Source of the DNA: Candidatus Nomurabacteria bacterium
GTDB taxonomy: Bacteria > Patescibacteriota > Minisyncoccia > Phycocordibacterales > CALRBL01
DNA length: 35,969 bases
NCBI GenBank assembly: GCA_963834935.1
Contig: CAWIDS010000002.1
Coordinates: forward strand, 1-35,969
Direction of reading: 5' to 3'
Each line of letters opens with the position of its first letter. Positions within the stretch are counted from its first letter, which is position 1. Under the pieces are notes generated by a model. It saw only the letters and a list, made by a program, of their open reading frames with translations, did no database searches and was not told the origin of the DNA. Positions 1 to 12,377 of this stretch are shown in pieces. Position numbers and translations under genes: made by a program.

Positions 1-154
1 ACAGGGAAGTGGATATGGCGACTGAACACTCTCCAATACCAACCACCGCTTGTCAGGGAGGCAAACATGAGGGGTCATACATGATCCAGCAATGTTTCTT
101 GAAAGATCTCCATTTCCTGCCGAGATCTCCTCGAGTTGAGAGCTTCTTTTCCAT
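1..154 (-). CDS. Possible partial hypothetical gene (cassette D), running off the window edge, possibly frameshifted near its start
   Basis: ATG at 154 lies in the same position relative to the junction motif as the other cassette genes. Its own frame closes after 33 codons, while the adjacent frame stays open to base 1. Confidence 0.3.
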
Positions 155-236
155 AATTTCTCTATCTTTTTCTATTGTTGAGGTTGTACTTCAAAAGCTA
201 TTTTTAAAGTAGCACGTAAATTATATTTTGTATACT

Positions 237-281
237 TTACTCCGCACGTGGGAGGATGTTCGGAAAAGTCTAAACCAATAA
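237..281 (+). repeat. Cassette junction motif, copy 1 (putative att site)
   Basis: TTACTCCGCACGTGGGAGGATGTTCGGAAA; reads LLRTWEDVRKSLNQ*. Confidence 0.85.
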
Positions 282-305
282 AAAAGCCCTGTCTTTCGAC
301 GGGGC
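280..305 (-). terminator. Intrinsic terminator of the cassette C gene
   Basis: Minus strand GCCCCGTC-GAAA-GACAGGGC followed by T6. Confidence 0.8.
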
Positions 306-341
306 AGGTATCCTTGAGTTGTGTGAGGAATCCCTATTGCT

Positions 342-596
342 CTAGGAAGCTGGTTTCTCATGAAGCTCTTCGGACTTGAGAAGTCGTGTGCGTTCCTGCA
401 CGCGCCAGTCGTCGTCAGGAATCGAGAGAGTCGGTGCAGTCAGCCAGCGCGGATCCACCTTCATCTCGACTCTGCCGTGCGTAATACAGTGAAGAACTCG
501 GAGACCCTTGGTAGGATTGTCTTCAATACGGGTTACATCCGGATAATAGCATCCGCATTCTGCGGCTTCTTGATTTGGAAAATAAGGTCCAGGCAT
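342..596 (-). CDS. Hypothetical protein (~84 aa, cassette C), possible Cys/His metal site
   Basis: ORF track 342..659. The better start is ATG 596 (MPGPYFPN), preceded by GAAGGGAG. Contains CxC and CxxH. A terminator lies downstream. Confidence 0.6.
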   Translation of the reverse strand: MPGPYFPNQEAAECGCYYPDVTRIEDNPTKGLRVLHCITHGRVEMKVDPRWLTAPTLSIPDDDWRVQERTRLLKSEELHEKPAS

Positions 597-748
597 TTTT
601 CTCCCTTCTATAGAAGAATTCCTCCAACACACACGTGAGGGGGAGGTCTGGGAGAACACTACAATTTATTAGAAGGAATGTCTATGATAGCTGTATGACG
701 TTCACAACGTTCACCCAGTAGGTGATTCTTCTGAATCACATGTTCACC

Positions 749-830
749 TTGCTCCGCACTTCATTGAGCACAATGACCTACTGGGTGGGAGGATGTTCGG
801 ATAGAAATTATGGGGAGAGGTGGTAAATAA
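749..830 (+). repeat. Cassette junction motif, copy 2, interrupted by a 25-bp insert (761-785)
   Basis: TTGCTCCGCACT-[25 nt]-TGGGAGGATGTTCGGATA; reads LLRT/WEDVRIEIMGRGGK*. Confidence 0.8.
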
Positions 831-881
831 AAAGCAAAACCCACTACCGGAGCAATGAGTCTTGCTTTGGTTCGTGGGTTT
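829..881 (-). terminator. Long imperfect hairpin, probable terminator of the cassette B gene
   Basis: AAACCCAC...GTGGGTTT outer stem with an inner AGCAA/TTGCT stem and a T-rich tail on the minus strand. Confidence 0.6.
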
Positions 882-893
882 GGTGGAGGTTGC

Positions 894-1195
894 CTATTCA
901 GCAACCGGTGAGCGAGTTGGAGGTCGAGACCTTCGCCAGTGAAGGCGGAGAGGACGACGTCGCGAACATACTCGTGGGGCTGGCCATCCGCACCGATAAG
1001 GGACAACCTCTTCAAGGTGTCCTCGTTGGTTCCGAATTTCTTGTATTTCGGGTCGCGCTTGCAGATCTGAACGAGGTCATAGCAGGTAGTTATCCCGCTG
1101 ATACCATCGTTCCAGAGGCTTGTGAGCGACATCATCAACACCTGAGCGAGTGGTTTTGGAACCTCCGCTCCGTTTTTCAATTTTATCATTTCCAT
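894..1195 (-). CDS. Hypothetical protein (~100 aa, cassette B), probable 1-bp deletion near 914
   Basis: ORF track 761..1195 runs through the terminator and junction motif. Restoring one base near 914 gives ...GEGLDLQLxSPVAE* with TAG at 894-896, just upstream of the terminator. Confidence 0.65.
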
Positions 1196-1259
1196 ATGCT
1201 TAAAAAGGGCAGTCTATTTGATTTTCTTCAGCTGAAGTTGTATCAGCTTCTTTATTCAA

Positions 1260-1288
1260 ATAATAACACAATTATATATAAAAAGCAA
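1260..1288 (-). promoter_or_regulatory. Sigma70-type promoter of the cassette B gene
   Basis: Minus strand TTGCTT-N17-TATTAT with a TG extension. Confidence 0.55.
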
Positions 1289-1298
1289 TGGTATGAAG

Positions 1299-1355
1299 TT
1301 GCTCCGAACTTGGGAGGATGTTCGGAGGGGAATTGTAGAAAAGGGAAGTAACTAA
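1299..1355 (+). repeat. Cassette junction motif, copy 3 (putative att site)
   Basis: TTGCTCCGAACTTGGGAGGATGTTCGGAGG, with an 8-bp inverted repeat CTCCGAAC/GTTCGGAG; reads LLRTWEDVRRGIVEKGSN*. Confidence 0.85.
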
Positions 1356-1380
1356 AAAAGTACCATCCGAAGACGGTGCT
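1354..1380 (-). terminator. Intrinsic terminator of the cassette A gene
   Basis: Minus strand AGCACCGTC-TTCG-GATGGTACT followed by a T run. Confidence 0.8.
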
Positions 1381-1414
1381 GCTGGTTTGATTCATATGCG
1401 GAGCATTACATTTC

Positions 1415-2050
1415 CTAGGCAGTTGCCAGAGGAGGCTCCTTTTTGAGTTGGCCTGATTGTCGGCTGCCCCATTCAGAGAACTTGTAAATGCCGACACAAG
1501 TGAGGAAAAGGAAGGCTCCTGTGATGATCCAAACTATTATTAAGCCCCCACAAAATGCAAATATTGAAAAACCCCACGATTTCTCGTAATGAAGGACCGT
1601 TTTGTAGTCCTCCTTCAGTACGACGCTCTCCAACATTGCCGTAGGCTCCTTGTTGCCGACGCTGTTCGTAAGGTCATCTTCGGTGACAAATTGGAAACCT
1701 CCGATTTGTGAAGAGTAATAAACCTTCCCGTCAGCGTTGAAAACGACCGTTGTAGGGAAGCGGCTTCTGCCAGCAAGTTTTCCGAAATCAACTAGCGACG
1801 GCAGGAATGTCGTCCTAATACTGCTTCCTCCTCCTGTTTTCATCCAAGGCACCTCGCCGAGAGGGTTTACAACACTCGCGTTGTAGGGTATCCATGCGGG
1901 CACTGTCCTCTCGAAGGGCTTGAAGGGTTTGAAGCAAGTGATCGCCCATTCTCTGCTAAACCATAACAGGAAGGCGAGACCGACGAGCAGGACGAGAATG
2001 ATCGGAATTTTTTGCCGATGTTCCTTTAATTTCTTTCCAATATTTTTCAT
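1415..2050 (-). CDS. Hypothetical membrane protein, 211 aa, with N- and C-terminal TM helices (cassette A)
   Basis: ORF with a GGAG RBS. Hydrophobic segments IPIILVLLVGLAFLLWF and FSIFAFCGGLIIVWIITGAFLFLTCVGIY. Confidence 0.8.
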   Translation of the reverse strand: MKNIGKKLKEHRQKIPIILVLLVGLAFLLWFSREWAITCFKPFKPFERTVPAWIPYNASVVNPLGEVPWMKTGGGSSIRTTFLPSLVDFGKLAGRSRFPTTVVFNADGKVYYSSQIGGFQFVTEDDLTNSVGNKEPTAMLESVVLKEDYKTVLHYEKSWGFSIFAFCGGLIIVWIITGAFLFLTCVGIYKFSEWGSRQSGQLKKEPPLATA

Positions 2051-2110
2051 CTGTAATCTCCAGGTTGTGAGTTGAGAAACTGCGACTCGGGATGAGATCG
2101 CTTCAGATGG

Positions 2111-2139
2111 ATTAAATCATCAAAATACTGTTTAGTCAA
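2111..2139 (-). promoter_or_regulatory. Sigma70-type promoter of the cassette A gene
   Basis: Minus strand TTGACT-N17-TTTAAT with a TG extension, a few bp from the tRNA 3' end. Confidence 0.55.
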
Positions 2140-2145
2140 TTTGTG

Positions 2146-2217
2146 CTCCCCCGGTAGGGATCGAACCTACGACCAATCGATTAACAGTCGATTGCTCTAC
2201 CGCTGAGCTACAGGGGA
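2146..2217 (-). tRNA. tRNA-Asn(GTT), CCA not encoded
   Basis: TCCCCTGTAGCTCAGCGGTAGAGCAATCGACTGTTAATCGATTGGTCGTAGGTTCGATCCCTACCGGGGGAG folds as a cloverleaf with anticodon GTT and a GTTCGA T-loop. Confidence 0.97.
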
Positions 2218-10517: not shown

Positions 10518-12377
10518 TTACGAGGGAAATATTTCCTGCTTGATGAATACGTCATACCAGACAGACAATATGTAAAGTATATAGATCTTGCGCGAATTGT
10601 CGGCTTTTCCGCTGGCGTGTTCTTTGAAGAGATGCTTGATATAACCGATCTTGAAATGCTCGTTGATATATTCGTTGGTGAGGATCACTTTTGAAAAGCG
10701 GTCGGGATTATCTTTGAGCCAGAAGCGAAGAGCAGTCGGAAAGCCAAGTTTTCTTCTTGACGAGGTTTTCTTCGGAAGGATATCTTTCATTGCCTGTCTT
10801 AAAATGTATTTGGTCTTCCCTCTCTTGTATTTGAATTTTTCAGGTATTTTTTCAGACAAGTCAGCGATCTTCTTGTCGAGAAACGGCACGCGAAGCTCGA
10901 GTGAATGCGCCATAGTCATCTTATCGGCCTTCTGAAGGATGTCTCCCGGAAGCCAGGTCTCGATATCTATTTTTTGCATCTTCTGCGAATCAGTGAGGCC
11001 TTTCAGCGGCTTGTATAAGGTGGCAAGGGAAATCTTCTCTTCCCTTTTTTCACCTTCCTGGAACTTCCAGAGACGTTCGATTTCCTTGCCTTTGAAAATA
11101 TGAGCGTTGCCGATGTAGCGATCCTCAATTTTGGTAAAGAAGCGGCTGAGATAATTCTTGCCATAGAATCTGAAAGGAATCATGGTAAGCGGGCGTATAA
11201 GTTTTTCCCTCATCCACTTAGGGAATATCTGTTTCATGCGATTGAGATCGAACGGCTCTCTATAGATGTTGTACCCGCCGAAAAGCTCATCTGCGCCTTC
11301 GCCGGAAAGCACCACTTTCACCTTCTTTCGCGCTTCTTTGGCCAGAAAATATAAGCCGACCGCAGAAGGATCAGCGACAGGCTCGTCGAAATGCCAGACT
11401 ATCTTCGGCAGCTCATCGAGGTATTCTTCTGATTTCAAGACGATCTCACTGTGATCAGTCTTGATATGGTCAGCCATCTCCTGCGCCTGCTTTCCTTCGC
11501 TGACTTGATCGAAGCTGATAGTGAAAGTAGACACTTTCTTATCTGTATTCTTGCTCATCAGGGCAACTATAGCTGCACTGTCGACTCCTCCGCTCAAAAA
11601 TGAGCCAACCGGAACATCGCTGATCATATGTGCTTTAACCGAATCCTCAAGCGTATCGCGGACTTCCTTTCTCAGCGCTTTCTCCTCAAATTCAGTATTT
11701 TTGAATTCGTATTGCCAATATTGTTCCTGTTTTACTTTGCCGCTGGTGATGTCTATCTTGAGATAACTTGCAGGCGGAAGCTTCCAGATTCCTTTGAAGA
11801 AAGTTTCTTCGAGTGGATTATATTGATATGAAAGATAATTGAATACCGCATCATGGTTTATTTTGCGTTTGAAGTTCGGATGAAGCAGAAGGCTTTTGAT
11901 TTCCGATCCATATGCAGCGATACGGTCGTTTTCTACCAAGTAATAAAGCGGCTTTATGCCGAAATAATCGCGAGCGATAAAAAGCTCCTGCGTCTTCTTG
12001 TTGTAGATCGAGAAAGCGAACATCCCACGGAGCCTGACGAGCATGTTTTCCTTTTCTTCCTCATAAAGATGGATGAGCACCTCGGTATCACTCTTTGTCT
12101 TGAAGATATGTCCCTTTTCCTTCAGTTGGTCGTAAAGCTGCTGGTAGTTGTAAATTTCACCATTGAAGACAATTGAGAGGGTTCCATCCTCATTCTCAAT
12201 CGGCTGTTTGCCGCCCGAAAGATCGATAATTGAAAGCCTTCGCATACCCATAGCGATGAAGGGGTCCACATAAAAGCCATCCTCGTCCGGCCCGCGATGG
12301 GTAATGATATCCACCATCTTATGTATAGTCTCAAGCGTATGTTCGCCTTTGCCGATGATTCCTGCAATTCCACACAT
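10518..12377 (-). CDS. asnB: Asparagine synthetase B family glutamine amidotransferase (intact copy)
   Basis: MCGIAG Ntn start, HRGPD, NGEIYN, RDYFGIKPLY, LSGGVDS, SGEGADELFGGY and ELRVPFLD. Confidence 0.95.
   Translation of the reverse strand: MCGIAGIIGKGEHTLETIHKMVDIITHRGPDEDGFYVDPFIAMGMRRLSIIDLSGGKQPIENEDGTLSIVFNGEIYNYQQLYDQLKEKGHIFKTKSDTEVLIHLYEEEKENMLVRLRGMFAFSIYNKKTQELFIARDYFGIKPLYYLVENDRIAAYGSEIKSLLLHPNFKRKINHDAVFNYLSYQYNPLEETFFKGIWKLPPASYLKIDITSGKVKQEQYWQYEFKNTEFEEKALRKEVRDTLEDSVKAHMISDVPVGSFLSGGVDSAAIVALMSKNTDKKVSTFTISFDQVSEGKQAQEMADHIKTDHSEIVLKSEEYLDELPKIVWHFDEPVADPSAVGLYFLAKEARKKVKVVLSGEGADELFGGYNIYREPFDLNRMKQIFPKWMREKLIRPLTMIPFRFYGKNYLSRFFTKIEDRYIGNAHIFKGKEIERLWKFQEGEKREEKISLATLYKPLKGLTDSQKMQKIDIETWLPGDILQKADKMTMAHSLELRVPFLDKKIADLSEKIPEKFKYKRGKTKYILRQAMKDILPKKTSSRRKLGFPTALRFWLKDNPDRFSKVILTNEYINEHFKIGYIKHLFKEHASGKADNSRKIYILYILSVWYDVFIKQEIFPS

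Follow-up and report, generated by a model that had tools for sequence, protein, structure and literature searches.

The first 2,217 nucleotides of contig CAWIDS010000002.1 from Candidatus Nomurabacteria bacterium (assembly GCA_963834935.1) probably hold a row of small cassettes that have no recombinase gene of their own and are moved by a large serine recombinase (LSR) whose target is the tRNA-Asn 3′ end. The whole stretch analysed, here called the window, is 35,969 nt long and constitutes contig C2 of a three-contig genome totalling 670 kb. Behind tRNA-Asn(GTT), repeat starts at 239, 751 and 1301 delimit units of 512, 550 and 844 bp and leave part of a fourth, as had been described in an earlier interpretation made from the letters of this DNA (the sequence-only reading), and the last core of the series is the end of the tRNA itself, whose 3′ end reads GCTCC on the plus strand. 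No recombinase gene lies within any unit, and the recombinase must act in trans. The proposal that the repeat is a recombination-site arm linked to the tRNA-Asn 3′ end is also borne out, and the enzyme class is now identified as a large serine recombinase.

The 26-bp repeat that opens each unit can be assigned with strong support, drawn from sequence comparison, to the element-side arm (P′) of an LSR attachment site. In one frame, the repeat encodes the final codons of an LSR gene (LRTWEDV); early stops interrupt this frame in 27 of 189 sites, versus 70 and 131 for the other two. Two long LSR open reading frames (ORFs) and nine LSR 3′ fragments read through the repeat in frame. LSR ORFs with Resolvase and Recombinase domains, some with a Zn ribbon, were identified at loci L069, L123, L142 and L116. 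Those of L069, L123 and L142 terminate at the tRNA-Asn junction, as do LSR genes in genomes G005 (same family, syntenic with hpf), G007 and G012. It became apparent that the tails of these genes exist in two versions: tRNA-antisense codons at tRNA-Asn and LRTW(D/E)DVR where a further unit follows, with the switch at GCTC. In three pairs (L069/L089, L392/L057 and L403/L178), similar LSR ends diverge after the same Leu, into tRNA antisense versus the repeat. Among 120 homologs of one junction LSR, whose tails were classified by regular expression, 39 have tRNA-antisense tails, 38 end in L-x-x-stop, two carry LRTW, one is similar and 40 are of other kinds; tails that span the attachment site thus look general in this LSR family. 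Related LSRs (L397–L412, P0002–P0121) end within other tRNAs, namely Gln, Ser, Met, His, Ala and Glu, which points to tail swapping at tRNAs across the family, and similar arrays may be present at those other tRNAs.

The organization of the site is markedly one-sided. Over the 189 sites, information per base is mostly 1–2 bits in the right arm and at most 0.5 bits in the left arm, except at position −1. Relative to the tRNA arm, P′ has the motif TCGAA 5 bp farther from the core, an offset that was the best of nine tried. In the A118/LI model, the distal motif is likewise displaced by 5 bp between the arms of attP and attB (Rutherford et al. 2013, PMC3783163). The shared core is very short, GCTC(C) only, and both the tail switch and the strain breakpoints are located in it. 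Among 416 left arms, counted without a shuffle control, 103 resemble a terminator hairpin, 64 have a −35-like hexamer, 11 carry a GTGAAC repeat and 238 have none of these. The position weight matrix of the repeat was built from five seed copies, one of them 1 nt out of register; true copies score 26–40 bits, versus best scores of 13.6–19.3 bits in five mononucleotide shuffles of the genome.

Comparison of related loci makes active shuffling of single cassettes likely, insofar as shared and divergent sequence can reveal it. L291 and L076 are 98% identical and agree in the distal flank as well as in the tRNA-proximal unit; they differ by an internal block of 4557 bp, comprising four units, whose ends fall in the core GCTCC, where strain breakpoints had been expected. 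Because the difference is internal, the order ‘newest nearest the tRNA’ proposed from sequence alone is not strict. At L098, a 610-bp unit with a site at one end and a degenerate site at the other is present twice, at 92.6% identity and with different neighbours, and L071 matches L111 at 99.5% identity as far as a site, beyond which the two diverge. In three relatives (L055, L137 and L238), a slot next to fusA, behind a site, is occupied by different units of 0.55–0.87 kb. A decayed tRNA-like arm is visible on the anchor side of this slot.

The motif was found in 13 of 401 genomes of the order, versus none for the reversed control, and exact-pattern matches amounted to at least 161 stretches in genome contigs and at least 137 in metagenome contigs. 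Titled loci with the motif are mostly labelled Patescibacteria; viral contigs gave no exact match to the site. Long flanks covered 80 loci from each of two collection scans (genome and metagenome), and 73 loci remained of 92 after removal of 16 overlapping duplicates and three loci without sites; kin among them are not independent, and the counts that follow are therefore descriptive. All sites lie on one strand in 73/73 and 213/213 loci, with at most 12 sites per locus. On the anchor side of the 73 loci, 24 have an Asn-type tRNA 3′ end (two of these were called Thr-with-intron by ARAGORN), 21 end within 3 kb and 28 have none, so that the anchoring to tRNA-Asn put forward in the sequence-only reading is not supported as an exclusive rule, either by these loci or by the six sites on contig C1 of the same genome. 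The 145 units have a median length of 969 bp. A single ORF is present in 74 of the 109 units of up to 1.5 kb, two in 25 and none in 10, and 92 of 124 ORFs in these small units run along the direction of the tRNA. None of the 109 contains an LSR remnant, and LSR-query matches occur in six of the 145 units overall, three of them being whole genes in elements of 8–10 kb.

In the proposed mechanism, the LSR would depend mainly on the right-hand arm, which is B′ (the T-arm of the tRNA) or P′ (the repeat, where TCGAA lies 5 bp more distal), and would tolerate any left arm. Integration would then regenerate a usable tRNA site, so that a circle with one P′ arm and a gene could be added repeatedly. Blocks flanked by two P′ junctions, or by a P′ site on one side and the tRNA on the other, could be excised and reinserted, by which the array would be reordered or pruned. 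The enzyme would be supplied in trans by a visiting autonomous element of 8–10 kb, and the cassettes probably originate from such elements as derivatives that kept the ends, or from capture events at secondary sites. A more far-reaching version, which we put forward tentatively and regard as possible rather than probable, holds that Patescibacteria possess a working serine-recombinase counterpart of the integron. Here, an LSR arriving in trans would insert single-gene cassettes below 1 kb, bearing a one-armed attachment site, at tRNA-Asn, remove them one by one or as blocks and reshuffle them; each cassette arriving beside an LSR element would restore the LRTWDDV tail, which could switch the enzyme between integration and excision or between an active and a quiet state. 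Such a system would give ultra-small bacteria a concrete, testable way to acquire and exchange accessory genes singly. An LSR reusing its own product junction with one arm would challenge the two-arm model of directionality, and a one-armed LSR could permit iterative stacking of genes at a tRNA end.

Several observations weigh against a cassette array moved by an LSR at tRNA-Asn. Classical LSR sites require two arms, and excision requires a recombination directionality factor (RDF; PMC3783163). The left arm here is unconserved, unlike the two roughly symmetric arms of LSR sites, and it is weak at 25 tRNA junctions too. The 5-bp shift depends on a five-base run, with 7 of 13 positions matching, and the codon-wobble signal nearly vanishes once degenerate positions are removed (0.13 versus 0.12 and 0.08). 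In the 28 loci without an Asn-type end, at least 3 kb (3–10 kb) of anchor-side sequence is available. LSRs at the tRNA-Asn junction are dispersed over the tree, LSR remnants are present in some larger units, and the difference between L291 and L076 could have arisen by deletion between short direct repeats. Circle junctions, which the sequence-only reading had suggested as a check, did not appear: none of the 213 loci has terminal repeats, many of these loci being cut-outs and not whole contigs, and none was detected in a short-read run whose coverage was too low. A joint from 684 to 240 in X1, considered as a candidate circle, was discarded since its loose ends match C1 at ~325–420, indicating a paralogous unit. 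The genome itself also speaks against the proposal, in that no cognate LSR was found at a completeness of 97%, with a gap adjoining the array end. The sole LSR found there, at ~275 kb on C1, lacks the tail, is located elsewhere and clusters with other tail-less LSRs. LSR genes at the junction were found in relatives and not in the array’s own genome, where the array at present looks like an orphan, unless an element sits in the gap.

The most serious competitor, which we judge rather unlikely, accepts the P′ arms as real and regards the small units as trimmed remnants of large tRNA-Asn elements, themselves immobile. LSR 3′ remnants do occur at the right ends of units in L135 and L141 and to the left of sites in L057, L063 and L064, the GTGAAC triple repeat of unit C resembles that of element L069, and the failure to detect circles fits this account, as does an accessory-gene run behind tRNA-Asn in G004, of the same genus, with no site above 12 bits. 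This account sits poorly with unit sizes that cluster near one gene, with the shared direction of 92 of the 124 ORFs and with the absence of LSR remnants from all 109 small units; the 610-bp unit of L098 moreover recurs with exact site boundaries, and the single slot next to fusA holds different units of 0.55–0.87 kb. The repeat could instead be regulatory or of the repetitive extragenic palindrome (REP) type, i.e. an operator, an RNA element or a repeat of a HUH transposase that merely follows terminators. It is an imperfect palindrome placed after terminators, six copies lie away from tRNA-Asn and true REP-like inserts adjoin it. We nevertheless rate this as very improbable, given that its spacing is GAAC-N10-GTTC and not the N4 of an SOS box, that the tRNA is the sole Rfam family above cut-off, that a search of the genome yielded neither a Y1 (PF01797) nor an IS110 (PF02371) transposase gene, and that neither strict strand polarity nor breakpoints in the core would be expected; the read-through of LSR genes into the repeat argues against it as well.

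Two further explanations appear barely tenable. If the array were an integron (IntI/attC) or a series of Xer-dif modules, the repeat would be a tyrosine-recombinase site, and one-gene units in a single orientation, an inverted AAC..GTT pair in the repeat and the presence of one tyrosine recombinase in the genome would all be accommodated. The consensus of attC and dif is RYYYAAC/GTTRRRY, to which the AAC/GTT pair, spaced by 10 bp, gives no fit. The single PF00589 gene is far off, at ~349 kb on C1, and presumably a housekeeping Xer, which it resembles (no IntI-specific model was run). The repeat lies in frame with LSR C-termini, and the LSR tail switch largely refutes a tyrosine-recombinase site. 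An assembly artefact of the long-read contig has in its favour the indel errors and the sequence beyond ~10.6 kb, where positions 10624–35969 form a fold-back palindrome centred near 23.33 kb, with arms 90–100% alike and the poorest match near the centre; the palindrome itself is probably a long-read or amplification artefact. The units, on the other hand, are unique sequence, and short-read contigs agree without mismatch at 511–661, 1153–1303 and 1374–1524 (at low depth, from a run possibly related to the source). The same layout recurs in many independent assemblies, which refutes an artefact for the architecture; the exact unit order in the window rests on one assembly. Sequencing runs listed for the genome comprise one DNA run at a small share and zero RNA runs.

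Among known systems, the nearest proven case is that of tandem staphylococcal cassette chromosome (SCC, SCCmec) cassettes driven by Ccr, a serine recombinase that is encoded on one element and cuts out neighbouring cassettes at one chromosomal site, alone or joined together, closing them into circles (Hossain et al. 2024, PMC11470126). The array resembles this in its tandem cassettes, presumably served by a serine recombinase encoded on another element; however, SCC elements are ~17–26 kb long and lie at rlmH in staphylococci (PMC11470126), whereas the units described here are mostly 0.3–1.5 kb, with one gene, up to 12 sites and a tRNA-Asn 3′ end as anchor, and the site overlaps the last codons of the recombinase gene. 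Phage-type large serine integrases share the Pfam domains, a short common core and the 5-bp distal shift (PMC3783163). They differ in that only one arm is conserved here and reuse of the regenerated junction is implied, while classical attL and attR are inert without RDF (PMC3783163). In the SSV-type ‘suicidal’ archaeal integrases, the attachment site likewise lies inside the integrase ORF and integration rewrites the gene; these are tyrosine integrases cut into two inactive pieces (Badel et al. 2020, PMC7253208), in contrast to the swap of ~10–20 C-terminal residues of a serine recombinase. Tycheposons of Prochlorococcus form islands of cargo elements at specific tRNAs in a streamlined genome, but 910 of 937 have a tyrosine integrase and a partial tRNA repeat of ~40 nt (bioRxiv 10.1101/2020.12.28.424599), compared with 4–5 bp and no integrase here. 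Island searches with TIGER/Islander exclude islands below 2 kb and require an integrase (PMC12424338), and island databases would therefore miss such arrays. No description of this system was found in the literature searched; subscription journals and bioRxiv supplements, which lay outside the search, could contain one.

Integrons deserve a separate comparison. Their arrays are polar and consist mostly of single-gene cassettes with one recombination site each, and enzyme-less orphan arrays exist, as in clusters of attC sites lacking an integron integrase (CALINs). A polar, apparently orphan array of mostly one-gene units is also what is observed here. In contrast to integrons, the recombinase is of the serine type, a tRNA end serves as anchor, an attC structure is missing, no IntI was found beside the array (from the single PF00589 gene, no IntI-specific model being run), and the 26-bp site fits neither attC end. 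The units further seem to have their own terminator and often a promoter, and the enzyme resides on a mobile element.

In the window, tRNA-Asn(GTT) occupies 2145–2217 on the minus strand, with the core GCTC(C) at 2145–2149 and TCGAA at 2161–2165; its 3′ 26 bp constitute the host arm (B′) of the attachment site. Unit A, the tRNA-proximal unit (1301–2144, plus strand, 844 bp), is, like B and C, bounded by repeat starts and begins with an intact P′ arm at 1301–1326 (plus) that reads LRTWEDVR in the frame of the LSR C-terminus. Cargo A (1415–2050, minus) is a protein of 211 aa with two hydrophobic segments recognised by eye; its Atlas matches all score at most 0.86, and scores below 0.9 were taken as leads only. 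A terminator-like hairpin follows at 1362–1377 (minus), and a promoter-like TTGACT-17-TTTAAT, noted by eye and below the scan threshold, lies at 2111–2139 (minus), within the left arm of the tRNA junction. The sequence-only reading had seen a terminator in every unit and, for units A and B, a clear promoter beside the next core. The terminator scan confirmed the former in units A and B, the hairpin of unit C (~285–305) being recognised by eye only; the promoter scan gave two matches in 1–2400, both outside the units, versus 3.1 expected, and so gave the clear promoters no support.

Unit B (751–1300, plus, 550 bp) has a P′ arm at 751–801 (plus) that is split by a 25-nt insert and, judging by this interruption, probably inactive. 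Its terminator lies at 831–868 (minus), and its cargo (895–1195, minus, the left end being approximate owing to a window indel) belongs to a hypothetical family of ~100 aa with seven matches. As assembled, ORF B has 144 aa and continues past the terminator as far as the site. A 100-aa database protein is 100% identical to it over 91% of the query and has relatives of 80–99 aa, which indicates an indel error in the window. Unit C (239–750, plus, 512 bp) opens with an ACTCC variant of the P′ arm at 239–264 (plus), identified by repeat match, and encodes an 84-aa, Cys/His-containing protein (342–596, minus, from the ATG at 596). A paralog of this cargo, ~80% identical, is found at 10.1–10.4 kb on C1 without a P′ site. 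The promoter-like motif of unit C, TAGACA..AATAAATTGTAGT (656–684, minus, by eye), is present at four places on C1, two of them as tandem copies. Unit D (1–238, plus) is truncated by the contig end; its ORF runs from 154 (minus) with a frameshift error near 74, and a short-read contig (depth 2.4) has an extra C after position 74. Cargos A, B and C matched no Pfam family and no PADLOC or PHROGs family. The contig’s left end has no overlap with other contig ends of the genome.

A GTGAAC triple repeat lies next to the core at 698–747 (minus) and is interrupted at 714–738, where the 25-nt insert occurs again. The same triple repeat adjoins the core in L103, L142, L161, L162, L164 and L311, and it ends a 457-aa gene of the autonomous LSR element L069 (~3.8 kb); it is possibly an origin or a protein-binding site. 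Within the LSR element of L123, a weak match to a terminase small subunit (10682–11089, E 9e-4) hints at a phage-satellite life style.

The 25-nt insert is a REP-like hairpin with copies at 714–738 (minus) and 761–785 (plus, with the GTAG tag on the other strand), the latter inside the P′ arm of unit B, where it probably fuses units B and C. GTAG-tagged copies occur in 11 of 201 genomes of the order at one to six copies each, without obvious target duplication; other copies lie at L371–L390, and one interrupts a P′-like site in L087. REPs of the GTAG type are intergenic palindromes of 20–40 bp with an unpaired GTAG at one end (PMC3733652). The insert agrees with this description in its palindrome and GTAG, but differs in its low copy number and in the lack of a PF01797 match in its own genome, the only genome searched. 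Other hairpin-like inserts split P′ arms at ~1403 in L291 and ~9618 in L077 (site-oriented coordinates), suggesting that the site may attract such inserts.

Of the six further sites on C1, all away from tRNA-Asn, five cluster at the left end, where a pilin-type unit and a 132-aa unit together form a 1615-bp block repeated in tandem. The tandem (G000:C1:1–3589, L021) holds at least 2.2 copies of the two-unit block at 99.9% identity, ending 8 bp past a site, and reflects a two-cassette circle that was truly amplified or an effect of assembly. Several small genes at G000:C1:4647–10500 (L021), among them the paralog of cargo C, have their own terminator and the promoter-like motif of unit C without a P′ site. 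Either end of C1 may continue the array: the left end has sites of the same polarity, promoter motifs in common with it and a homolog of a G002 cassette gene, but the synteny of G004 (pyrG) points to the right end. The sixth site lies 2 kb behind tRNA-Gln, whose 3′ end has GCT in common with the core, making this locus a possible secondary target. There (G000:C1:424205–426267, L022), tRNA-Gln is followed by a broken gene, a transposase gene of insertion-sequence type, which we take to be IS3-like, and one intact P′ site facing the tRNA. In G004, G005, G006 and G032 (L225, L226, L227, L236 and L392), tRNA-Asn is itself split by an insert of ~0.26–0.6 kb; the G004 insert contains a 173-aa ORF, and the tRNA-Asn of the window is uninterrupted.

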